Positions 4,407-48,632 of a stretch of DNA of 64,000 nt are shown piece after piece (position 1 is the first letter of the stretch; the number at the start of each line of letters is the position of its first letter). The DNA comes from an uncultured Bacteroidales bacterium (GTDB taxonomy: Bacteria; Bacteroidota; Bacteroidia; Bacteroidales; UBA1402), in the NCBI GenBank assembly GCA_964502355.1, contig CAZCWK010000004.1, positions 16,470 to 80,469 on the forward strand. The letters are read 5' to 3'. The translations under genes were made by a program, and so were the position numbers. The notes beneath the pieces were generated by a model. That model did not search any database and was not told where the DNA came from. It was given only the letters and a program-made list of their open reading frames with translations.

Positions 4407-4464
4407 ATAATATGAGTGATATTCCACGGAATTGAATTCATCATAAATTTATAAAACAAAAAAT

Positions 4465-5076
4465 ATGTCCAAGGTAAAACCAAAAAAACGTAGCACTTTC
4501 ATTGATATGACAGCAATGAGTGATGTTACTGTTCTTTTGCTGACATTCTTCATGAGTACGGCTACTTTTATTCCGAAAGAGCCCGTTCAGGTTTTGACAC
4601 CTGGTTCGGTTTCGGAAATAAAAATACCTGACGCCAATATAATGACTATTCTTATTGATAAAGGAGGAAGAGTTTTTCTTTTCCTTGACAGTAAGAAAGA
4701 TAAACTGGCGGTTTTGGAGAAAATGGGAAAAGACTATAATATCTCATTTACTGATAAACAGAAAGCTTCATTCATTAACCAGACAAGTATAGGTATGCCT
4801 GTCGGTAAGCTACAGAAGTTTCTGGATCTTGATCCTACTGACCAGGATGCTGCTTTAAGACAAATAGGCGGTCTTCCTGCTGACAGTACAAATAATCAGT
4901 TCAAAGAATGGGTTCGTAACGCGAATTCCGTTAACAAAGAATTGGCTATTGCCATAAAAGCAGACGAATCTACTCCTTATCCTATGGTTAAGAATGTTAT
5001 CACTACTCTGCAGGAATTAAAACTTAACAGGTATAATCTTGTTACCCAGTTAAGAGGAACTTCAGACGGATTCTGA
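4465..5076 (+). CDS. exbD: ExbD/TolR biopolymer transport protein
   Basis: N-terminal block IDMTAMSDVTVLLLTFFM (ExbD TM signature). Follows exbB. Confidence 0.8.
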   Translation: MSKVKPKKRSTFIDMTAMSDVTVLLLTFFMSTATFIPKEPVQVLTPGSVSEIKIPDANIMTILIDKGGRVFLFLDSKKDKLAVLEKMGKDYNISFTDKQKASFINQTSIGMPVGKLQKFLDLDPTDQDAALRQIGGLPADSTNNQFKEWVRNANSVNKELAIAIKADESTPYPMVKNVITTLQELKLNRYNLVTQLRGTSDGF

Positions 5077-6726: not shown

Positions 6727-6921
6727 ATGGAGCCTAAGGAGAAATTTAATTTCAGAATTATTTGGGGTGCACTGATGGTAGTGATATATGTAACAATTTC
6801 TGTTTTGTTGATATTCACTGATACCTTCATGATGGAAAAGAACGTAAGACTTATAGTTGGATCATTGTTTTTAATTTACAGTATTTTCAGAGCAATAAAC
6901 CTGATAAAATTTAAAAAATGA
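6727..6921 (+). CDS. Small two-TM membrane protein (hypothetical)
   Basis: 64 aa with two hydrophobic helices. Its stop overlaps the next ATG (ATGA at 6918). Confidence 0.4.
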   Translation: MEPKEKFNFRIIWGALMVVIYVTISVLLIFTDTFMMEKNVRLIVGSLFLIYSIFRAINLIKFKK

Positions 6922-7856
6922 AACGAAGCTATTTATTTGTTTTTTTGTCATTAATCATAATCCTGACAGGTTGTGACAGGAGAAAGATTACCAGACTTGA
7001 CACATGGACAAGCGGTGAAGCCAAGATTGTAGCTGATGACTGCTTTTCCCCGATCATCAACGAAGAAATTGCAGTTTACGAAGGAATAAATCCTGATGCT
7101 TCGATTGAGCCGGTTTACACAAATGAAGTTGAGGCTTTTGATTTACTTCTAAAAGACAGCATACGTCTGTTGGTTGCTGCAAGAGAATTGACTACTAAGG
7201 AGACAGAATACCTTAAATCAAAAAAGTTATTCCCCAGGACAAATAAGATTGCACTCGATGGAATAGCCGTGATAATTAATAAAACAAATAAAGACTCAAT
7301 AATAAGCGTTTCTTCTCTTACCGGTATTCTTACAGGTAAGATTAAAAACTGGAATGAATTGTATCCGGATTCAAAACTGGGATCGATAAGAGCAGTTTTT
7401 GATAATCCGAATTCGAGTACTGTCAGATTTATGAAAGATTCTGTTTTAAACGGAAAACCTTTTGGTGAAAATGTAAAGTCTCTTGAAACTAACAGAGCAG
7501 TATTTGATTTTGTTGCTGAAACACCTAACGCTCTTGGTTTTGTCGGCGTAAGTTGGGTTTCAAACCCTAATGATACTACAAATCTTAGTTTTAACGGAAA
7601 AATCAGGGTAATGGCTGTCAGTGCATATGATGATGCAAGAGATGATAACAGTTATCAACCTTTTGCCGCCTGGATTGCTATGGCAAAATATCCATTGGTA
7701 CGTGATATTTATATTATTACTTCTGATGTACGTGGCGGTTTACCGTCAGGATTTATGGATTTTGTTGCAAAAAGCAGCGGTCAGCGACTTATAATGAAAT
7801 CAGGAATGGTTCCGGCGACTCAGCCGCTTAGACTTGTTAATGTTACCGAGAAATAA
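6918..7856 (+). CDS. PstS-family (PBP-like) substrate-binding lipoprotein of the Ton operon
   Basis: Lipoprotein signal (LTGC). Periplasmic binding protein-like sequence. This is its conserved position after tonB in Bacteroidota. Confidence 0.7.
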   Translation: MKRSYLFVFLSLIIILTGCDRRKITRLDTWTSGEAKIVADDCFSPIINEEIAVYEGINPDASIEPVYTNEVEAFDLLLKDSIRLLVAARELTTKETEYLKSKKLFPRTNKIALDGIAVIINKTNKDSIISVSSLTGILTGKIKNWNELYPDSKLGSIRAVFDNPNSSTVRFMKDSVLNGKPFGENVKSLETNRAVFDFVAETPNALGFVGVSWVSNPNDTTNLSFNGKIRVMAVSAYDDARDDNSYQPFAAWIAMAKYPLVRDIYIITSDVRGGLPSGFMDFVAKSSGQRLIMKSGMVPATQPLRLVNVTEK

Positions 7857-7889
7857 TTTAATAAATATAAAATATAAAAAACAGAAAGA

Positions 7890-9548
7890 ATGAAGAAGCA
7901 ATTTTTAACCGCATTTTTAATTACTGTTGCAACCGCAGCGTTTGCGGTCAGCAATCTGGGTATCGATTATTTTAAGCTTGGCGAATTTGATCAGGCAAAA
8001 GCTTATTTCGAAAAGCAATTAGCGCAAAGTCCGGCAGAATCAAATTACTATTTGGGCGAAATGGCTTTTGCAAATGGTAAAATTGATGAAGCCAAAGCTT
8101 ATTACGAAAAAGGATTGGCTGCTGATCCGTTATACATGCTTAACAACATTGGTAAAGCAAAGGTTATGATGAAAACAGATCGTACCAATGCAGATTTGCT
8201 TATTGCAACCACAATGAAGAAGAACAAGAAAAACGTTGAGTTAAATGTAGCTGTTGCTCGTGCTTATTATGAAAACGGTATCAAAGATGTAGCTCAGACA
8301 AAGTTGCTTCTCGCTAAGAAAGTTGGCAAAAATTCTCCTCTGGTTTATCTTTATGAAGGTGATATTTTACAGGATGACAATAAACCTGGAGATGCTGCAG
8401 CAAAATACGAACAGGCAATGTATTTTGATCCTGAAAGTGCTCTGGCAAAACTGAAATATGCAGTAGTTTATGAAAAAGTGAATCCTGATGTATCTGTTGA
8501 AACACTGAAAAAAGTTATTGCTGCTAAACCTGAATATCTTATTGCTTATAAATATCTGGGAAGAAGCTATCAGAAATCCGGTAAATACAATAGTGCTGTC
8601 GAGTCCTACAATACTTACTTTACTGATGGTCAATTTAAAGAAAAAGATATGGAATATCTGATTTCTTTAGCTCAGTCATATTATTTCACAGACCAGTTCC
8701 AGCAATCTATCGATGTGCTTGATAAAGGACTTGCAATGGAACCAAACAATTTTGTTTTGAACAGACTCAGGATGTATAATGCTTCTAAGGTAAATGACAA
8801 AGAAAATGGTTTAGCTTTAGCTGAAAAGTTTTTTAAACTTTCTACAACCGGATCTGACAGATTCATTTATCAGGATTATTCAGCTTATGCGTCAATTCTT
8901 GGTGATGCAGGTAAATATCAGGAATCTATTGATTTGTATAATAAAGTTTTAAATACTGAAGGTATTGAAGTAAACAAGACTGATATTTATAAAGAAATGG
9001 CTCCGCTTTATACTAAAAAAGGAGAACCTTTAATGGCTGCCGAATTGTATAAGAAAATAATTGACCTCGCGGGTTTTGATGCAACAGCTACTGATTACTA
9101 TCAAATGGGACGTACCTACTATACTGCAGCGCTTTCAAACCGTGCGGATACTACAGTTGCAGGAAAAGCTAAATTTAAAGAAATTGCAATTAAAGCTGAC
9201 AGTGCATTTTCAAAAGTTTGCCAGATGACTCCTGATAGTTATATAGGATATTTGTGGAGAGGTAATTTGAATTCTGCCCTTGATCCTACAACAGCATTGG
9301 GTTTGGCAAAACCACATTATGAAGCTACAATTGAGATTCTACTGAAAAAAATTGGTGAGGGATCGACAAACGGTTACACAAAAGATCTACTGAGATGCTA
9401 TGAATATCTTGGAGTATATTATTTCCAGAAAGATGATAAGGTAAACAGTACAAAGTATTGGACGAAAGTTCTCGAGCTGGATCCGAATAATGCTAATGGT
9501 AAAGCTATTTTGGAAGAGTATAAAAATGCTGCTTCTGCCAAGAAATAA
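7890..9548 (+). CDS. Tetratricopeptide-repeat protein
   Basis: 552 aa with a signal peptide and repeated A.Y..G...D....A..Y.KAL TPR units. Last gene of the operon. Confidence 0.8.
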   Translation: MKKQFLTAFLITVATAAFAVSNLGIDYFKLGEFDQAKAYFEKQLAQSPAESNYYLGEMAFANGKIDEAKAYYEKGLAADPLYMLNNIGKAKVMMKTDRTNADLLIATTMKKNKKNVELNVAVARAYYENGIKDVAQTKLLLAKKVGKNSPLVYLYEGDILQDDNKPGDAAAKYEQAMYFDPESALAKLKYAVVYEKVNPDVSVETLKKVIAAKPEYLIAYKYLGRSYQKSGKYNSAVESYNTYFTDGQFKEKDMEYLISLAQSYYFTDQFQQSIDVLDKGLAMEPNNFVLNRLRMYNASKVNDKENGLALAEKFFKLSTTGSDRFIYQDYSAYASILGDAGKYQESIDLYNKVLNTEGIEVNKTDIYKEMAPLYTKKGEPLMAAELYKKIIDLAGFDATATDYYQMGRTYYTAALSNRADTTVAGKAKFKEIAIKADSAFSKVCQMTPDSYIGYLWRGNLNSALDPTTALGLAKPHYEATIEILLKKIGEGSTNGYTKDLLRCYEYLGVYYFQKDDKVNSTKYWTKVLELDPNNANGKAILEEYKNAASAKK

Positions 9549-11074: not shown

Positions 11075-11620
11075 TTAGAGCATCATCCCTTTTCCTACTT
11101 CAGATGAAACAGCTTCACCTGAAAAGAGAGTCACAATTTGCAGAGCAAATTTAGCAGCAGCCCCCGGGCCATTAGCGGTAATAATATTGCCTGATTGGAC
11201 TACTTGTTTTTTTGAAAGGCTGGCACCAATAAGATTGTCTTCATATCCGGGATAGCATGTTGCTTCCTTTCCCTGGAGTATCCCAAGCTGACCAAGTATT
11301 AAAGGCGCTGCACAAATAGCTGCTATCTGTTTACCTTCGGTGTTGAAGTTTTTCAACAGATTTTTCAAACCTTCATGAACATTCAGATTTTTTGTACCCG
11401 GCATGCCTCCCGGTAGTATGAGCATGCTGGAGTCTTTCAGGTCAATGTCAGGGTACAATTCATCAGCCATTATTGTAATGCCATGAGCTCCCGTTACACT
11501 GTGGTCTCCGGTAATGGAAACGCTGATAATGTTCAGCTGTGCTCTTCTCAGTACATCAATAATAGTTATGGCTTCAATCTCTTCAAATCCCGGTGCTAAA
11601 AATAACAGAATTGGTTTCAT
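11075..11620 (-). CDS. DJ-1/PfpI/ThiJ family protein
   Basis: 181 aa. Nucleophile elbow AAICAAP. Begins LAPGFEEIEA. Confidence 0.85.
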   Translation of the reverse strand: MKPILLFLAPGFEEIEAITIIDVLRRAQLNIISVSITGDHSVTGAHGITIMADELYPDIDLKDSSMLILPGGMPGTKNLNVHEGLKNLLKNFNTEGKQIAAICAAPLILGQLGILQGKEATCYPGYEDNLIGASLSKKQVVQSGNIITANGPGAAAKFALQIVTLFSGEAVSSEVGKGMML

Positions 11621-11665
11621 GGAGAATATATTTATGTTTGATAATTTCTCAAACCTGACAGACTT

Positions 11666-12442
11666 CTATCTGAGTCTGTACTGATAAGTAATTGTGCCGC
11701 TTTGATTCTGGTTGCCTTCAATATTATTAAACCTTGCCTGTTTGGCTGCATTTACAGCAGCAGATCGTAATGTTGAGTTGTCAGTGTTGGTGCCCTGTAG
11801 TGAAACAGTCGCTGCTATTACGCTTCCCTGAGGGCTGACAACTATTCTTACAACTACAACACCTTCTTCCTGAACTGAGTATGATGGCATAGGTAATGCA
11901 CCCTGAGTGCTTCTGCCATTTAGTGAAAAATACCCGGATCCATAGCCGCCACCTTTTTTATTGCCTGATGTGGCGCTACCATTAACAGCTCCCTGATTGC
12001 CACTTCCGGTTGTAGAAGTGCCCTGGCTGGTACCTGAACCTGAAGGTTTGCCGAATACGGATGCTGCCTGATTTCTGATTTCAGAAGCTTTACGTTCCTG
12101 CTCTTTTCTTTTCTGGTCTTCTATTACCTTCTTTTGGGCTTCTTCTTTTTGTTTTTTTTGTTCCGTGAGATTAACTGATTTTTCAATATCCTGAGTTATA
12201 ATCTCTTCTGGTTTATTCTGTGTTGCGGGCTCGATTTCCACAGGTTCCGGTTTGGTGACTTCTTCTCCCGCCGGTTCGAACAATCCCTGTGCTTCATCTA
12301 CATTACCAAAATTTACCAACAAACCTTCCTCTGCAACAGGACTATTCTTTTTAAATCCCATCATCAGCATTAGGATCAGTATTGCCATATGTATTAATAC
12401 CGTTCCAGCCAGAGCTATTGATTTGTCTTTATTTATCGTCAT
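11666..12442 (-). CDS. TonB-family C-terminal domain protein (second Ton cluster)
   Basis: TM anchor, a Lys/Glu-rich linker, a Gly/Ser-rich region and a C-terminal TonB-like fold. Overlaps the upstream exbD by 4 nt. Confidence 0.6.
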   Translation of the reverse strand: MTINKDKSIALAGTVLIHMAILILMLMMGFKKNSPVAEEGLLVNFGNVDEAQGLFEPAGEEVTKPEPVEIEPATQNKPEEIITQDIEKSVNLTEQKKQKEEAQKKVIEDQKRKEQERKASEIRNQAASVFGKPSGSGTSQGTSTTGSGNQGAVNGSATSGNKKGGGYGSGYFSLNGRSTQGALPMPSYSVQEEGVVVVRIVVSPQGSVIAATVSLQGTNTDNSTLRSAAVNAAKQARFNNIEGNQNQSGTITYQYRLR

Positions 12443-12858
12443 TCCACTTTGGGTCTTGTAGCCAGTACCAATTTGAATTTATTCTCGTTGCATATGTTTA
12501 AAACCTTAACAAGCTCACCATATGGTATTTTCTCATCAGCATATAATGCAACGTACATATCGGGTTCCTCAAGAATTCTTTCTCTGAGGAAAGGTTCAAT
12601 CCCTTCAAATGCAACCTGTCTCTCTTTTTCATTACCAAAAGCCACATAATAATTCAGCTCAGCGTCGATAATTACTCTTGTCAGAGGTTTCGCCGAGGTT
12701 TGTTGTTTACTTTCGGGCAACAGAATTTTTATGGCATTAGGGTGGACAACAGTTGAAGTTATCATAAAGAATATCAACAACAGGAAAATGATATCAGTCA
12801 TGGAAGCCATGCTGAAACCGGAATCAATTTTATTTTGTCTTCTTAAACCCATTGTCAA
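12439..12858 (-). CDS. exbD: ExbD/TolR biopolymer transport protein
   Basis: 139 aa. Block MASMTDIIFLLLIFFM. Confidence 0.8.
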   Translation of the reverse strand: MTMGLRRQNKIDSGFSMASMTDIIFLLLIFFMITSTVVHPNAIKILLPESKQQTSAKPLTRVIIDAELNYYVAFGNEKERQVAFEGIEPFLRERILEEPDMYVALYADEKIPYGELVKVLNICNENKFKLVLATRPKVE

Positions 12859-12861
12859 ATA

Positions 12862-13569
12862 TTATTTAACAGGTTCATTGAGCAAATCCATAAATTCCAC
12901 AGTCTTGTCTTCAAGATTATTAACAATCTTACTGACTCGTGTAACCAGATAGTTGTATGCAAAGAATGCCGGGATTCCGACCATCAATCCTCCAACGGTT
13001 GTTATCATTGCTTCATAGATACCTGATGAAAGGATTATGATGTCAACATTAGCACCTGCATTAGCCATATCAAAAAAAGCTTTGACCATACCTGTTACTG
13101 TACCAAGAAATCCAATCATAGGAGCTCCTCCTGCAATAGCTGCCAATATAGGTAAGCCCTTTTCGAGTCTCGCAACTTCAATGTTTCCTACATTTTCAAT
13201 AGCAATCTGCACGTCATTCATCGGGCGACCTATTCTGGATATCCCTTTTTCTATCATTCTTGAGTAAGGACTGTTAGTTTGTTTACACAGCTTAACGGCA
13301 GACTCAGTCTTTCCATCCAGGATGTAATCCTTTATTCTGCTCATAAATGTCGGATCGTTTTTTAAGGCAGCCTTTGTTACCTTTAATCTTTCTATGAATA
13401 TATATATGCCCAGCAGAGATAAAAGTACAAGAGGTATCATTAGCCAACCTCCCTTTATCGCCATGTCAAAGAAATTCATTTTGGCTTCTGCAACTGATTG
13501 GTTGCTAACGTCTGAAAGTACCGGTAAAGCTTCCTGCGCAGTGGATTGAATGAAAAGTAGGGGATTCAT
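12862..13569 (-). CDS. exbB: MotA/TolQ/ExbB proton-channel protein
   Basis: 235 aa. Block GFLGTVTGMVKAF. Confidence 0.85.
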   Translation of the reverse strand: MNPLLFIQSTAQEALPVLSDVSNQSVAEAKMNFFDMAIKGGWLMIPLVLLSLLGIYIFIERLKVTKAALKNDPTFMSRIKDYILDGKTESAVKLCKQTNSPYSRMIEKGISRIGRPMNDVQIAIENVGNIEVARLEKGLPILAAIAGGAPMIGFLGTVTGMVKAFFDMANAGANVDIIILSSGIYEAMITTVGGLMVGIPAFFAYNYLVTRVSKIVNNLEDKTVEFMDLLNEPVK

Positions 13570-42693: not shown

Positions 42694-42794
42694 ATATTCT
42701 TCAAATTATCTGACTGCGTTCGTAGCAGATATCAGCAATAAAATTTATAATTATAACATATATGTTGTATATTTACAACAAATGTGTTGCGATT

Positions 42795-43295
42795 ATGGAA
42801 GAAATTATAGTAAAAAACATTAAACCTTTCGATACAAAAGGCAGTATCAAAAGGTCGATTAGCAGCGATACTGACAAATCCTGGGTTATTGAGACCCCGG
42901 TAAAGGCTTATCGTTGGAAAAACAACATTGAAAAGATAAACATTATCAGGGAAGGGATTCCTTATGATGCTTTTGATACATTAAGCAGACAACTAAATAT
43001 TCCTGTTAAAGCTACTCTTGCCATGATAGGTATGCCTCAAACGACATACAACAAGAAAAAAAATGAAAAATCGCTGTTAGATAGAAGAAATAGTGAATTA
43101 GTTATGCTGATAGTAGAGTTAATTCAATTCGGACTTGAAGTTTTTAATAACGAGGAAATCAAGTTTCAAAGATGGTTGAAGAAACCGAATATTTCTTTGG
43201 GTGGCAATTCTCCTGAAAGTATGCTGGATACGATAACCGGAATAGATGAAGTTAAGCACTGCCTTAACAGAATTGAATTTGGAAATTTTGCGTGA
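42795..43295 (+). CDS. Xre/MbcA/ParS-type antitoxin (DUF2384 toxin-binding domain)
   Basis: C-terminal FQRWLKKPNISLGGNSPESMLDT..GIDEV...L.RIEFGNFA. Start set at MEEIIV. A 4-nt ATGA overlap links it to the RES gene. Confidence 0.75.
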   Translation: MEEIIVKNIKPFDTKGSIKRSISSDTDKSWVIETPVKAYRWKNNIEKINIIREGIPYDAFDTLSRQLNIPVKATLAMIGMPQTTYNKKKNEKSLLDRRNSELVMLIVELIQFGLEVFNNEEIKFQRWLKKPNISLGGNSPESMLDTITGIDEVKHCLNRIEFGNFA

Positions 43296-43771
43296 TGAAG
43301 ATCTATAGAGTTGAAAGAGAAAAGTATATTGAAACCACCTTGACAGGAATAGGGGCTTCAATGACTGATGGATTCCGTTGGAACAGTTTATTTACCAGAC
43401 TTGTTTATACATCTGAAAGCAGGGCATTGGCTATGCTTGAGGTTTTTGTACATATGGATTTAAGTGAGGATTTACCTGCAGACCGGATTCTTGTTGAAAT
43501 ATTTATTCCTGATAATGTAATTATACAGGAAGTAAAAACAGAGGATCTTCCTAAAGGGTGGGATGCTAAGCCTCCTGCTGTCATTACACAAACAATAGGA
43601 GATGATTTTGTTATTCAAAAAACTGCTTTGATATTAAAAGTGCCGAGTTATATTGTTCCTGATGAATACAATTATCTGATTAATCCTTATCACGAAGATA
43701 TCAGTAAGCTGAAGATACTTAATATTGCTCCTTTGACTTTTGATAATAGATTGATTAATCCGGGTATGTGA
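43292..43771 (+). CDS. RES-domain toxin (MbcT/ParT-like NAD+-targeting family)
   Basis: 159 aa. GFRWNS...LVYTSESRALAMLEVFVH carries the R-E-S signature context. Confidence 0.75.
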   Translation: MMKIYRVEREKYIETTLTGIGASMTDGFRWNSLFTRLVYTSESRALAMLEVFVHMDLSEDLPADRILVEIFIPDNVIIQEVKTEDLPKGWDAKPPAVITQTIGDDFVIQKTALILKVPSYIVPDEYNYLINPYHEDISKLKILNIAPLTFDNRLINPGM

Positions 43772-43782
43772 TAATTATAGAC

Positions 43783-45312
43783 TCATTCATTAATTAACCA
43801 GTATCCGTTTTTTAGGGTTCCTTTGCGTTCCAGCAAGCCTGATACTTTGAGTTGTTTTATTATTCTATCCGCAGAACTGCCAGATATTCCGGCATTTATA
43901 GCAATATTCCTTATTGTGATAAGCGGATTATTATTTATCAATTCGATTACCTTTCCGAGTAGATCAGTAGGTGCATAAGATATCTTAGGTTCTGATAAAT
44001 GATTTCCAATAACGTTTTTTGGCTTAGGCTTTACAAAAGCCGGATGGATATAAAAATCCACCTCAAAATATGTACGTTCTTCGTCAAAAATAAATTCTGG
44101 TGAAGGTGAACCGTTTTCTCTTAATACTTTTTTAATTCTGGAAATTCCTGTTGCTTTACCCTCAGTTAAATCCAACTCTTTTAAAAAATCACCCAGTTTC
44201 CTGTTTCTATAGCGTCTGGGCTTAATTGGGCCTTTTGTAAAAGCTTCAGCTTTTATGGATCGGTCGGGTCCGCCATAATTAATTATTGCTATGTAGTTTG
44301 GATAAATCCTTACTTCTATAGGTTCCCTAACCTGGTAGTCTCTATGATAAACGGCGTTCGCGATTGCCTCTTCTAAAGCCTCCAGCGGATAATTCCATAT
44401 CCTTACGGCTTCGGCTCTATCTGACAACTTGGTAATTTTCTCCTGTAAAATCGTTGACTTACAAAAATCAATAAATCTTTTTATTTGGTTCTGAACCGGA
44501 CCGTCGATCGGCGGTCTTTCATAAAAAGCCGGATCATCCGCGCCGTTTGGAAACTCTACGACCTCAATTCGCGAATAAGGAAAAAACAAATGCGGCTTTT
44601 CGGAAAAAAGCATCAGAGAAATGTTTTTTGGATAAAGTGCTTCCGGAGGGCCTGAAACCAAATCCATTTGCAAAAGCAGATCCGCTTTTGACAAAGATTC
44701 AGAAAACTCAAACAATCTGCTCTTTGTTATTCGTAAATGGTCTCTTACCAGTGTTATGGAGATGTCTTCAAGAGATGAATTGGTGTTGACTCTGTCGTCA
44801 AAAGGTACTTTGCTAGCCAGTTCAATGAGTTCCTGTTGCTCCTGCAAATCCGCTTTAACAGAATTGGAATACTTCCTGATATAATAATAAAATCTTTTTT
44901 CTCTTGATGTTATTTGTTCAGGCACCTCATATGGGCGGTTTGGCCCTCCCGGTATCCAAAGTACAATGATATATTTCCCATAAATCTGTTCTATTGACAT
45001 TTTAGGCGTATATACCGGTCTAACCAGATTGTTGAAACCTATCATTTGCTTTTGAATATTATCCATCTGTTCTATCGGAATGCCTTTTAGCGGAAACTTA
45101 GCCACACCTTTGTCTTCTTCTACACCAATGATAATATACCCGCCCCCGATGTTTTCAATATCGTTAGCGAAAGCACAGATTGTTCTGTAAATGCTGTCAG
45201 GGTTCCAGCTTGCTTTAAATTCCAAACGGTCATGCTCAATGATTCGACCTTTAAGCAAATCGGGAATGTTAACTGGTAATGGCATATTTCGTTGTTTTTC
45301 AGTTATTGTCAA
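43783..45312 (-). CDS. AlbA_2 (Schlafen-like) DNA-binding / ATP-binding protein with a C-terminal winged HTH
   Basis: 509 aa. N-terminal E.DRLEFK...I.RTICAFAN...GGYIIIGV. Mid-protein HATPase_c_4-like EAIANAVYHRDY. C-terminal wHTH. Confidence 0.65.
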   Translation of the reverse strand: MTITEKQRNMPLPVNIPDLLKGRIIEHDRLEFKASWNPDSIYRTICAFANDIENIGGGYIIIGVEEDKGVAKFPLKGIPIEQMDNIQKQMIGFNNLVRPVYTPKMSIEQIYGKYIIVLWIPGGPNRPYEVPEQITSREKRFYYYIRKYSNSVKADLQEQQELIELASKVPFDDRVNTNSSLEDISITLVRDHLRITKSRLFEFSESLSKADLLLQMDLVSGPPEALYPKNISLMLFSEKPHLFFPYSRIEVVEFPNGADDPAFYERPPIDGPVQNQIKRFIDFCKSTILQEKITKLSDRAEAVRIWNYPLEALEEAIANAVYHRDYQVREPIEVRIYPNYIAIINYGGPDRSIKAEAFTKGPIKPRRYRNRKLGDFLKELDLTEGKATGISRIKKVLRENGSPSPEFIFDEERTYFEVDFYIHPAFVKPKPKNVIGNHLSEPKISYAPTDLLGKVIELINNNPLITIRNIAINAGISGSSADRIIKQLKVSGLLERKGTLKNGYWLINE

Positions 45313-45543
45313 TACCTGGCATGGAGCAACCAGATTAGTAATGCAAATATATAAATTAATTGTTTAAAATATATTAATATTTAAAATGTTTGTTTGAGGG
45401 ATTAATCATCCTATTAGGTATTGATTTTCGAGAAATACATATTTTAATAATAGAAGTTCAGATAGCAAATCTATTTGATAATAGACAGGATCCTGAAAGG
45501 TTTATTTGTAAATAAGCCCGGACTTAATATAATTACGTATTAT

Positions 45544-45570
45544 AGTTGAATGTTTCAGCGTGCTGAGTTG
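45544..45570. repeat. 27-bp direct repeat, left copy (AGTTGAATGTTTCAGCGTGCTGAGTTG)
   Basis: Identical 27-mer at 47713-47739. Weaker similarity extends ~30 nt upstream (TAAGCCC.GA...TAATT). Confidence 0.85.
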
Positions 45571-45716
45571 TTGACTTTGTGCGCTGAGTTTAGTGTGCCA
45601 TGCATGGCGCATCACTCGACAATGAGAGTCCGTTATGTTGGCTGGCAGTTGCAAATACCCAAAACTACTCTTTTTAATTTCAAATAAAGATTGTACCTTC
45701 GTAAAAATAGTCCTTA

Positions 45717-46856
45717 ATGCAAGAGTCAATTATCATACGAAATTTTGGTCCTATTAAGAATGTAGAGATCAAAGATATAAAGCCATTTACTGTTTTTATT
45801 GGAGAGTCGGGAAGTGGAAAAAGTACGATTATGAAAGTAATCGTTCTATTTCGTTGGATTTATAAGATGGTTAATATCCGTTCTTATTTAAAGCATGCAA
45901 ATATTACAGTGTCACCATTCAAATTTAATTTCAAAGAATATTTGGACAACGGAGGTTTTGAAGAAGAAGCCTATATACACCCGGATACTGAAATAATTTA
46001 CAAAAGAGGAAATAATGAAATTTCTTATATTGGTTCACTTAACACAAATGTAATTGTACCTGAAAACGATTTGAGTTTAGACAAAATGAGTTTTATTGCT
46101 GATAAGAGAAATATAGTACCTGATATTCTTGCCAATAATTCAAAAGCAGATAGTTTTTTTGTAAAAGAAACTTATGAAGATTTCAAAATTGCATACCCTT
46201 TCATTAGGGAATTGCCTATGAATTATTTAGGAGTAAAATATTCTCGCAAGAAAGTTGGTTCAATTACAAAGCATTTTATTGAAAGCACAGATGAGAATAA
46301 GAAATACCCTCCGATAAAATTGGAAAATGCATCTTCTGGCATGCAAACGGTAACTCCTTTGTCAGTTATAATTGAATATTTTGCCAAGCACTATAATTTT
46401 TCAAAATTCGGTGATAAAATTATCTTTAAATATCTGTATGAGAGTGATGATTTGAAGAAGTTTAATACTGGTTTAAATATCGGTGAAATAAAAAATAAAA
46501 ATGTTCATATTCATATTGAAGAACCTGAACTAAGCTTATATCCTGAAAGTCAGCGTAGTTTGATTGATTTTATTATTAATCGTTGCTTTATTGAAAAACA
46601 TAACGATTATAATATGACTGTTATGATGGCCACCCATAGTCCATACATTATCAATCACTTGAATTTGTTGATAAAGTCTTACGATAACGATAAATTGATT
46701 GAGGGGGCGAAACTAGATTATGATAGTATCTCTGTATATCAAGTAGACGATGGCACTTTGTATGATTTGAAAATTAAGAATAAAAGATTGATTAATACAA
46801 ATATTCTTTCCGAAACTATCAATAATATTTACAGTGAGTACAACGAGATAGGATGA
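45717..46856 (+). CDS. ABC-type (AAA_15/AAA_21-like) ATPase, candidate defence-system component
   Basis: Walker A GESGSGKST, signature-like ENASSGMQ, Walker B VHIHIEEPELSLYP and H-loop MMATHSPY. AT-rich relative to the flanks. Confidence 0.75.
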   Translation: MQESIIIRNFGPIKNVEIKDIKPFTVFIGESGSGKSTIMKVIVLFRWIYKMVNIRSYLKHANITVSPFKFNFKEYLDNGGFEEEAYIHPDTEIIYKRGNNEISYIGSLNTNVIVPENDLSLDKMSFIADKRNIVPDILANNSKADSFFVKETYEDFKIAYPFIRELPMNYLGVKYSRKKVGSITKHFIESTDENKKYPPIKLENASSGMQTVTPLSVIIEYFAKHYNFSKFGDKIIFKYLYESDDLKKFNTGLNIGEIKNKNVHIHIEEPELSLYPESQRSLIDFIINRCFIEKHNDYNMTVMMATHSPYIINHLNLLIKSYDNDKLIEGAKLDYDSISVYQVDDGTLYDLKIKNKRLINTNILSETINNIYSEYNEIG

Positions 46857-47527
46857 ATGAATTATTGAAATGTGATTTTATTACTCACTACAACAGAGAA
46901 CCAAATTTACCTGTTTCTTGTACATTGATTTTGAAATCAACTCGAAATACAGAATTCTCTCTAATAGATGATGATGCAATGATTTATTCTCTGGATGATA
47001 AGGATGGTGTGGCGAGATACAATAATATTGATTCGTTAGATGTTACTGTTATTAATTATGAGAAATTTATTACTACATTACCACCAAGAGTAAAGAATAC
47101 TGGGTCTATCGGAAGTAATATTTGTGATTTGATTGTTTATACAGACGACAAAAATTACTTTTTATTGAATGAATTGACAGACACCAAAACTTATCTTCTT
47201 TATGAACACGAAAGGTCCGGTGAAAAGGTGGAAGGAAAAATATCCAAAGCTAGACGTCAATTAAAACAGTCATTGGAAAATATAGTCGATGTACCTACGA
47301 TAGGGATGTATATCGAGAGTTTCAAAATTAAACAGTGTTGTTTCTTTAACAAACAAGCAAAATATGCACCGGAAGAGTTGAATGCGACAAAAGCGTTTAA
47401 TTCTTTAAATGCTATCTCATCAACAGGCAACTCTATGTCGAATCCTGACATTGAGAATTTAGGATTTGAGTATTGGGAATTTTATGACAACCAAACTTAC
47501 TTCATAATAAGTGACTCAATAAAATAA
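46853..47527 (+). CDS. Unknown partner protein of the ATPase, possibly PD-(D/E)xK nuclease-like
   Basis: 224 aa with a 4-nt ATGA overlap onto the ATPase gene. The pattern ICDLIVY-x11-ELTDTK resembles a D...(D/E)xK core. No other recognisable motif. Confidence 0.5.
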   Translation: MNELLKCDFITHYNREPNLPVSCTLILKSTRNTEFSLIDDDAMIYSLDDKDGVARYNNIDSLDVTVINYEKFITTLPPRVKNTGSIGSNICDLIVYTDDKNYFLLNELTDTKTYLLYEHERSGEKVEGKISKARRQLKQSLENIVDVPTIGMYIESFKIKQCCFFNKQAKYAPEELNATKAFNSLNAISSTGNSMSNPDIENLGFEYWEFYDNQTYFIISDSIK

Positions 47528-47577
47528 AAACTTGCGAAAGACTTTGCTTTATTCACGATTTTATCTCGCTATGCCTT

Positions 47578-47602
47578 ACGTGGATTCTTCACGTTTTTTT
47601 TA
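47578..47602 (+). terminator. Weak terminator after the ATPase cassette
   Basis: ACGTG-gattctt-CACGT followed by T8. Confidence 0.4.
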
Positions 47603-47712
47603 AAGACACGGGTAATTTAGCACATAGCAGTTATTGATAAACATAGAATATATAAATCCTATTAAGTGACAGTAATTACAGCTAAGCCCTGATTTTTGTA
47701 ATTGTGGGCTTA

Positions 47713-47739
47713 AGTTGAATGTTTCAGCGTGCTGAGTTG
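47713..47739. repeat. 27-bp direct repeat, right copy
   Basis: Identical to 45544-45570. Locally CAGCGTGCTGA (47725-47735) pairs with TCAGCACGCTG (47769-47779). Confidence 0.85.
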
Positions 47740-47835
47740 GATTGTCTTCGTGCGGAAAGTTTGTATGTTCAGCACGCTGAATTTCGGAATTTATAGTTAC
47801 TTTTGTAGAAACTGTCTATTATATATAAAAGGTGT

Positions 47836-48246
47836 ATGGCTGTAAAGTTTTGTGTGTACAAACAAACTCATGATGTTTCGGGCAAGAATGACGAAATTTA
47901 CTATGCTAAAGCTCAGTCTTCGGGCGAGATAGGGTTTGAAGAGATTTGTAATAAGATTTCAGACAGGTCATCGGCTACTAAAGGTGACGTTATGCTTGTG
48001 CTTGATGGTTGTATTAATGTGATTAAGGAAGCCATTAAGGAAGGTCACATTGTGAGACTTGGTGATTTTGGCAGCCTTAACCTGACAATTTGCAGCGAGG
48101 GAGTAAGCAATGAAAAAGACTTCTCTGCAAAGAATATCACAAGTGCTAAACTTAATTTTAAACCGGGGAAAGACCTTCAGGATACACTAAAGGAGCTGAC
48201 TTACGAGAAAACCACTGTAAAAAGACCAAAGAAAAAAACTATTTGA
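47836..48246 (+). CDS. Bacteroidales-type HU-like DNA-binding protein
   Basis: 136 aa. Block SSATKGDVMLVLDGCINVIKEAIKEGHIVRLGDFGSL...AKLNFKPGK, which is an HU/IHF-like arm and fold pattern. Confidence 0.7.
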   Translation: MAVKFCVYKQTHDVSGKNDEIYYAKAQSSGEIGFEEICNKISDRSSATKGDVMLVLDGCINVIKEAIKEGHIVRLGDFGSLNLTICSEGVSNEKDFSAKNITSAKLNFKPGKDLQDTLKELTYEKTTVKRPKKKTI

Positions 48247-48335
48247 GGATCGGAATTTAAAACCCATCTTTGAGTAACAGGCACTATACCGAGGTGAAGA
48301 AAATGCAATTCCCGGGATTAATTGATTTACGAAAT

Positions 48336-48362
48336 CATTTCGCTCAGTACTGAGGCGAAATG
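48336..48362. other. Strong imperfect palindrome or hairpin
   Basis: CATTTCGC-TCAGTACTGA-G-GCGAAATG (8 + 4 bp with one bulge). No T-run follows it. Confidence 0.4.
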
Positions 48363-48493
48363 AGTTTACAAATCATCAGTAATACTATTAAAAATCCGGA
48401 TTTATTACAGTTGGTATAGGAGCTTCAAAGTTTGAATGAATTAGATAAGTGGGTAGAAACCACTGAGAATACGCTGAAATAGTCTTAAAAAAA

Positions 48494-48632
48494 CGAACAA
48501 TTGTTTCCCTTACCGAACAATTGTATCCTAAACCGAACAATTGTATCCTTTTTGTATCCTTCTTGTTCGGTCGCATGTTTCCCTTCTGATGCTTTCTTTT
48601 CTGAAAAATACTTTTTTATGAATTTATCTTTG
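48494..48632 (+). promoter_or_regulatory. Promoter/operator of the pilin operon: three 20-bp phased CGAACAATTGTWTCC repeats, the 21-nt TTGTATCCTTT x2 element, a conserved 17-nt block and a TAnnTTTG -7 box
   Basis: Repeat units start at 48494, 48514 and 48534. 21-mer at 48541-48561. TGATGCTTTCTTTTCTG at 48587-48603. TATCTTTG at 48625-48632. Confidence 0.7.

Follow-up and report, generated by a model that had tools for sequence, protein, structure and literature searches.

Introduction

Pairs of an ABC ATPase and a nuclease are one of the commonest designs in bacterial immunity. In Septu, the nuclease is bound by an oligomeric ATPase whose nucleotide state gates its activity. Payne et al. (bioRxiv 10.1101/2024.01.29.577857) nominated 145 candidates, the PDC systems, on the ground of their embedding in BREX, DISARM or restriction–modification (RM) loci, and one of these, PDC-M29, is held in PADLOC-DB v2 as cassette CAS_00123 with the composition FAM_00005>>FAM_02872 (bioRxiv 10.1101/2024.01.29.577857). 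PDC-M29 was named in no main text that we found, appearing only in the supplement of Payne et al., where FAM_02872 carries no functional annotation. Here, we describe a related two-gene cassette in a 64,000-nucleotide stretch of contig CAZCWK010000004.1 from an uncultured Bacteroidales bacterium (the window, always meant at its full length). Gene A (45717–46856, + strand) encodes a 379-residue standalone ABC ATPase of the AAA_15/AAA_21 type, PDC-M29A-like and with a predicted PtuA-like fold, and gene B (46853–47527, + strand) encodes a 224-residue putative nuclease of the PD-(D/E)xK type.

We propose that the two genes probably form a self-contained mobile operon that joins an ABC ATPase to a PD-(D/E)xK-type nuclease and constitutes a rare and divergent branch of the anti-phage candidate PDC-M29. 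This holds no surprise in kind, both the architecture and the family having already been catalogued. What the analysis adds is a link at the profile level to PDC-M29 for a branch that the PDC-M29B models miss, a pattern of relocation of the motif lysine, and evidence for turnover of effector alleles and for insertion between flanking repeats.

Cassette layout and the ATPase

The open reading frames and their coordinates are exactly as given in a preliminary description of the locus, the stop codon of A overlapping the start codon of B in an ATGA at the junction GGATGAATG; there is no third gene inside the cassette. A terminator-like hairpin with a T-run (47578–47604, + strand), 51 nt past the stop codon of B, probably marks the end of the two-gene operon and is the single such site in 45300–47900, a count that is not above that in shuffled sequence. 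A sigma-70 promoter scan of the cassette region, which does not cover Bacteroidota promoters, gave sites that were not above chance. The GC content of the cassette (0.301, against a window mean of 0.373 with a standard deviation of 0.02) is the second lowest among 622 equal-length windows of the 64 kb stretch, which bears out an initial impression gained from a few lines of sequence.

Protein A contains a Walker A motif (GESGSGKST, residues 29–37; G29ESGSGKST37), an ABC signature (ENASSGMQ, residues 203–210; S206SGxQ210), a Walker B motif (IHIEEPELSLYP, residues 265–276, with the catalytic-glutamate block I265HIEEPELSL274) and an H-loop (ATHSPY, residues 305–310; T306HSPY310). All four had been picked out by eye and all are invariant across 13 homologues. 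The domain type suggested at the same time is confirmed by Pfam, with AAA_15 (9.8e-19) and AAA_21 (4.4e-16) both over their gathering thresholds; as was also remarked, no transporter or membrane partner is present near A in the list of open reading frames of the window. The top of 88 PADLOC matches is PDC-M29A (PDLC04562; E = 9.7e-33, 112 bits), in an alignment of residues 4–330 of A with profile positions 3–336 of 410. Weaker PADLOC matches include AriA, HEC-01A, NsnB, PtuA, GajA and Old (1e-17 to 1e-8).

A sequence search of the PDB with A gave nothing close (top match FtsE, E = 0.003). The AlphaFold2 model of A, with a predicted local distance difference test score (pLDDT) of 72.6 and a predicted template-modelling score (pTM) of 0.79, has as its top Foldseek matches the Septu PtuA structures 8ee4 and 8eea (E from 1.7e-8, probability 1.00, template-modelling score ∼0.45), along with retron-associated PtuA complexes, followed by Rad50 heads (E ∼1e-7). 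Taken as one part of the proposal made above, it appears probable from the motifs and the model that the ABC ATPase A is competent for catalysis and folds in a way that resembles Septu PtuA.

The partner protein and its link to PDC-M29B

B was initially placed in no recognised family, and it indeed matches no Pfam, NCBIfam or PADLOC model, with marginal matches only in PHROGs; in line with the first impression that HNH and TOPRIM motifs are absent, it has no HNH match in the Pfam, NCBIfam and PADLOC scans and no TOPRIM match in Pfam or PADLOC. Nothing was found in PDB sequence searches using B, the B-family profile or the PDC-M29B profile. A word-seeded search assembled 58 clusters of B relatives, every one annotated 'hypothetical', and a full profile search extended the family to 447 representatives at 50% identity, the best 150 of which are short proteins (mostly ∼200–230 residues, with some shorter fragments).

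The motifs ICDLIVY (from residue 90) and NELTDTK (from residue 106) of B had been taken as a possible D...(D/E)xK nuclease core. The acidic residues of this assignment, D92 and E107, were rightly chosen. The invariant residues among close relatives include F35, D39, N58, C91, D92, E107, Q136 and C162; across a diverse set they shrink to F35, D92, E107 and Q136. Of 177 family representatives, 176 keep D92, E107 and Q136. The lysine was not: K112 of NELTDTK lies in a variable column, the motif position is occupied by T109, and it is K129 that co-varies with this position.

Scanned directly, B of the window has no PADLOC match at E ≤ 1 to either of the two PDC-M29B models, so that PADLOC, which had been proposed as a check and which does identify A through its best match to PDC-M29A, would not recognise the B component. 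Relatives of B scanned singly against these models gave weak matches in 13 of 56 close and 10 of 40 diverse sequences (best E = 6e-9). When the B family was compared by hhalign with 20 genuine PDC-M29B proteins, taken from loci in genomes of the same phylum, the two aligned over 134 columns (97.1% probability, E = 5e-11) with three blocks in register (CD/CD, ELT/ELK and A..QL/A..QL). The 20 genuine loci have a 410–430-residue ATPase, 26–30% identical to A of the window, with a stop codon that overlaps the beginning of the next gene, a B gene of ∼165 codons. In the alignment of the genuine PDC-M29B proteins RCDGML is followed 13 residues on by FVELK and then by A..QLE.T and KKA..CNK, which includes a textbook D...ExK nuclease motif. 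Their top three Pfam families by number of members matched, all below threshold, are NERD (four of the 20 members, 0.0027), PDDEXK_9 (two members, 0.0024) and HSDR_N_2 (one member, 0.0092), which we take to be families of the PD-(D/E)xK clan. Sub-threshold matches within the B family itself are to HSDR_N_2 (two members, 0.0012), SduA_C (0.024) and the PADLOC model REase_II (3.5e-4), and B of the window has no NERD match. On the basis of the hhalign register, the PDC-M29B motif and the sub-threshold matches to nuclease families, B is best read as a divergent sister of PDC-M29B, and both as putative PD-(D/E)xK nucleases.

The AlphaFold2 model of B, built from the family alignment (mean pLDDT 91.1, pTM 0.88), places D92 directly before a strand (93–97) and E107 within another (102–109); a helix (129–145) that bears K129 and Q136 comes next, and then a strand (159–166) with a CCFF motif. 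This predicted strand–strand–helix–strand order fits that expected around a PD-(D/E)xK active site, in a superfamily whose core has an alpha-beta-beta-beta-alpha-beta fold. The non-significant fold matches of the model in the PDB include McrBC (chain 7vsr_M), SfsA, HindIII and Bax1 (E of 2–3), with other weak matches to N.BspD6I, viral exonucleases and PD-(D/E)XK and NERD proteins; the presence of restriction-type nucleases among them is only a hint. A restriction-endonuclease-like fold, which had been put forward for B as a point to check, has support from the motif, from the predicted order of secondary-structure elements and from remote homology; Foldseek gave no significant match in its favour.

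A lysine at either of two positions

In the hhalign register, T109 of the window's B falls on the lysine of the PDC-M29B ExK motif, and K129 falls on a conserved tryptophan that opens the following helix in PDC-M29B. An alignment of the 177 B-family representatives with the 20 genuine PDC-M29B proteins (197 sequences) was used to count residues at the two positions. Threonine, serine or alanine at 109 occurs with lysine at 129 in 129 sequences, and lysine at 109 with a non-lysine at 129 in 45; PDC-M29B has lysine at 109 in 20/20 proteins and at 129 in 0/20. A lysine is thus found at exactly one of the two positions in 194 of the 197 sequences, and the three that deviate (T/R, R/R and K/K at 109/129) are still basic at one of the positions or at both. 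When columns 109 and 129 are left out of tree building, the lysine state switches 10–14 times on the resulting tree.

Our reading of this pattern is that one lysine is required and that it can be supplied from position 109 or from position 129, the latter presumably being the case in the window's B. Among PD-(D/E)xK enzymes there are documented cases in which active-site residues have relocated. The occurrence of a lysine at exactly one of two positions in almost every sequence argues for a live nuclease site in B, with D92, E107, K129 and Q136 as the predicted active-site residues; D39 and N58, invariant in both families, may assist them. Homologues with their lysine in either of two positions offer a clean natural experiment on the active site.

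The same residues bear on a different explanation, namely that B lost its activity together with the ExK lysine and serves the ATPase as a nucleic-acid-binding sensor or adaptor, with the effector located elsewhere or absent. T109 in place of the motif lysine and the failure of the model to match a solved nuclease significantly would both be accounted for in this way. However, D92, E107 and Q136 are conserved, the retention of a lysine at exactly one of 109 and 129 is as expected if the lysine is functionally required, and active sites in this class of enzyme are able to relocate; we therefore consider an inactive B to be unlikely.

Comparison with described systems

PDC-M29 resembles the cassette in having two homologous proteins encoded in the same order, on the same strand and with a stop/start overlap, and in combining an ABC ATPase with a small cysteine-containing protein of the PD-(D/E)xK type. 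The two differ in the length of A (379 residues in the window, 410–430 in PDC-M29) and of B (224 residues compared with ∼165), the window's B having an inserted hairpin (∼113–127) and, unlike PDC-M29B, a conserved C-terminal extension (∼186–218, 'GFEYWEF'). They also differ in the position of the motif lysine (129 in the window's B, 109 in PDC-M29B), in frequency, the window's branch being the rarer, and in setting, since the window's pair lies outside any RM, BREX or DISARM locus. The preliminary description had considered that A and B might be a new pairing. Their homology to both catalogued components (E = 9.7e-33 for A, an hhalign probability of 97.1% for B) instead identifies them, at the level of sequence, as a rare and divergent branch of PDC-M29. 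As this branch is not recognised by the PDC-M29B models, surveys that use those models probably undercount the family.

Septu, including the retron-associated PtuAB of Ec78, Ec83 and Eco7, supplies the solved structures closest to A (PtuA; PDB codes 8ee4, 8eea, 8sux, 9n69 and 9nnb, E ∼2e-8 to 1e-7) and shares the two-gene logic of an ABC ATPase and a small nuclease. The Septu effector PtuB is, however, an HNH protein, whereas the window's B is of the PD-(D/E)xK type with conserved D/E/K/Q motifs. The NCBIfam PtuA model scores A at 18.8 against a cut-off of 500, the PADLOC PtuA match (∼1e-10) is far weaker than that to PDC-M29A, and there is no retron at the cassette, in contrast to the retron variants of Septu. 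HEC-02, which was tested in Payne et al. (2024), couples an ABC ATPase to a partner with a NERD domain of the PD-(D/E)xK clan, and A matches HEC-02A at 8.7e-11; this is far below the match to PDC-M29A, and the window's B lacks the NERD match. PARIS likewise unites an ATPase that acts as sensor or scaffold with a nuclease effector, and A matches the AriA models (4.7e-17 and 8.4e-16), but the cassette has no TOPRIM/DUF4435 partner and B is unrelated to AriB.

Distribution, coupling and divergence

Both genes are covered in 17 loci, which represent ten distinct contexts including the window, and in all 17 A is the gene directly upstream of B, the two either overlapping by 4 nt or standing no more than 3 nt apart; the A-then-B arrangement on one strand is seen in the 13 loci of the window's branch. 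The pair is therefore conserved as a unit, a point on which its interpretation as a system had been made to depend. Its neighbours differ from locus to locus and, in eight contexts other than the window, are for the most part housekeeping genes: locus L001 has uvrA and accC, L012 has panB and a gene for a pseudouridine synthase, L063 has metH and a gene for MTHFR, and L065 has tamB and a gene for a sigma factor. In L013 (7724–13670), from Candidatus Symbiothrix dinenymphae, the pair has split an RND efflux operon, lying between its membrane-fusion (adaptor) gene and its pump gene; 3 kb from the cassette in this locus there is a HEPN/nucleotidyltransferase pair. Only some of the loci have genes of defence type (HEPN/nucleotidyltransferase, Mrr, AIPR or another AAA_15 gene) within 10 kb. 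In L064 a second AAA_15/AAA_21 ATPase, apparently split into proteins of 132 and 459 residues (11214–13006), is located 6 kb from A and B.

The family was not found in 60 relatives of the host (13 of the same genus, 15 of the same family and 32 of the same order). A sample of 400 further genomes of the phylum contained it once, compared with 25 of 401 for PDC-M29B. This distribution bears on the idea, prompted by the Rad50-head matches of the A model and by the shared combination of ABC ATPase and nuclease, that A and B form a housekeeping complex for DNA repair or recombination of the Rad50/SbcC-plus-nuclease kind. A gene pair that was not found in the 60 relatives, 13 of them of the same genus, and only once in the 400 further genomes, that is low in GC, that occupies a different location in every genome, whose B evolves far faster than its A and whose 379-residue ATPase has no long coiled coil or coiled-coil insertion makes such a role very improbable.

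Between loci, nucleotide identity is ∼90–96% in A, falls abruptly to ∼50–65% at the A/B junction and is at background level ∼100 nt beyond the pair. Locus L007 compared with L009 (A, 6840–7997; B, 8001–8630) is 96% identical in protein and ∼92% in DNA for A, against 63% and ∼62% for B; the window and L005 share 81% protein identity in A and 45% in B. L007 and L009 come from metagenome-assembled genomes (MAGs) labelled Emticicia and Flavobacterium, and such near-identical A genes under labels of distant hosts indicate that A moved recently between them. From the aligned sequences, we interpret L007 and L009 as a case of recent transfer between genera in which the effector allele was replaced. 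The ATPase is conserved while the nuclease changes fast, with a sharp break where the two genes meet, and this contrast suggests exchange of effector alleles. The B alleles have either been swapped by recombination or are evolving very fast. Effector exchange bears on how systems of this kind keep pace with the counter-measures of phages. The patchy occurrence, low GC content and unrelated insertion sites together show the cassette to be horizontally mobile, and the pair looks horizontally acquired and, as suggested at the outset, defence-like.

L004, titled as a MAG of a Lactobacillales bacterium, carries the only label from outside Bacteroidota among the genome matches, and its A is 63% identical to that of the window. 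Either a transfer across phyla took place or the contig, from a termite-gut metagenome, was binned wrongly.

Proposed function

By analogy, A and B most likely act in defence as a module that resembles Septu but has a PD-(D/E)xK effector. Following Septu and other systems made of an ABC ATPase and a nuclease, A would oligomerize and bind B, either holding it inactive or directing it, with the binding or hydrolysis of ATP by A as the switch. A cue derived from the phage, or a fall in ATP, would then release or activate B, and the freed B would cut nucleic acid, whether phage DNA or, in an abortive infection, all DNA. The fast divergence of B may reflect an arms race or a change in specificity.

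Several observations weigh against the proposal that this is a nuclease-based defence operon of the PDC-M29 family. No experiment on PDC-M29 or on the window's branch was found in the literature. The canonical ExK lysine is missing in the window's B, in which T109 takes its place and K129 is the candidate within the site; only three phylogenetically independent contrasts in lysine position are well supported, and while all three are of opposite direction as expected, with six control columns mostly unchanged in them, a sign test (p = 0.25) cannot reach significance. The model of B has no Foldseek match at E ≤ 0.001 in either the PDB (top match BsoBI, E = 0.25) or BFVD (top match E = 0.084), and that of A, resting on 13 sequences with a pLDDT of 72.6, is of only moderate confidence. 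Finally, the majority of homologous loci lie outside recognisable defence islands.

Flanking repeats and mode of insertion

A perfect 27 nt direct repeat, AGTTGAATGTTTCAGCGTGCTGAGTTG, brackets the cassette, with its left copy (45544–45570, + strand) 147 nt upstream of A and its right copy (47713–47739, + strand) 186 nt downstream of B; a gene for an HU-HIG DNA-binding protein (Pfam) follows 97 nt after the right copy. These are the only two copies in the 2.9 Mb genome at up to three mismatches. L004, from another genome, has a perfect 35 nt direct repeat at equivalent positions (2525–2559 and 4463–4497), the sequence of which is unrelated to the 27-mer. No flanking repeat of at least 20 nt is present in the other 11 of the 13 loci, and a search for an unoccupied site that has the 27 nt repeat just once found none; all that it yielded was an element of 79% similarity, in genome G405, whose context is different. 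An 'insertion with long target duplication' is on record for RM units without mobility genes (PMC2853133), and the resemblance of the repeats around A and B to such insertions is a lead.

These borders bring in another explanation, in which the cassette is a selfish addiction or mobility module: it would persist and spread in the manner of a toxin–antitoxin (TA) or RM unit, B would be a toxic nuclease restrained by A, its nuclease activity may promote insertion, and any protection against phage would be incidental. Solitary insertions between or inside housekeeping operons, as in the RND efflux operon of L013, the sharp borders of the cassette, the two unrelated perfect repeats that resemble RM-unit insertions (PMC2853133) and the Pfam label of AAA_21, 'putative AbiEii toxin, type IV TA', are all in keeping with this. 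Long repeats flank only two of 13 loci, however; the search for a single-copy empty site found none, so that a target duplication is unproven, and the PDC-M29 relatives are embedded in RM, BREX and DISARM loci. A module of this kind would moreover overlap with abortive-infection defence rather than exclude it. We regard it as a possible but less probable account than a defence operon. A more specific version, in which A and B are a minimal self-mobilizing nuclease cassette whose complex promotes intergenic insertion with a 27–35 bp target duplication and without a transposase or integrase, seems a long shot. Were it true, the lysine relocations and the turnover of B would reflect changes of target or escape from inhibitors, and it would offer a mechanism for the unexplained long-target-duplication insertions of RM units.

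The accessory island

In the window, the cassette forms part of an accessory island of ∼5.8 kb (42700–48540) between a giant surface-protein gene of the type IX secretion system type and the promoter of a pilus operon, with borders placed within ∼30 bp. The whole island is missing from four loci (L046, L039, L049 and L048) in three genomes of the same genus, in which the 3′ end of the surface-protein gene runs almost straight into an element that matches 48541–48600 of the window; it is this junction that defines ∼42.70–48.54 kb as an island absent there. Rfam and tRNA scans of the island gave nothing, so that there is no tRNA-linked integration site within it.

Besides A, B and the HU-HIG gene, the island holds a type II TA pair, consisting of an Xre-family antitoxin (42762–43295, + strand; NCBIfam NF049845, 102.8 with a cut-off of 90) and a RES toxin (43292–43771, + strand; NCBIfam NF049844, 164.2 with a cut-off of 110), both also identified by Pfam, and a 509-residue protein with AlbA_2 (Schlafen-like), HATPase_c_4 and winged-helix domains (43783–45312, − strand; Pfam). 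Both neighbours had been named correctly from the sequence, and their description as typical defence-island company is only partly true, given the mostly housekeeping neighbours of the loci elsewhere. Neither the AlbA_2 gene nor the RES/Xre pair ever stands beside A and B in other loci, and both were rejected as components of the system. Some 380 residues of the AlbA_2 protein align with a PADLOC model of a pAgo-associated protein (1.3e-18) and also with SIR2-associated 'Aga' models; no Argonaute or SIR2 gene is nearby.

The right copy of the 27 nt repeat is followed by its own inverted complement (47769–47781), and pairing of the two would give a hairpin that lies just upstream of the HU-HIG gene. 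The 60 nt element at the pilus promoter (48541–48600) is 82–85% identical among genomes of the same genus, compared with 67–70% for the flanking coding DNA; it has a 21 nt exact core in genome G401 and is preceded by three 20 nt tandem repeats (48494–48553).

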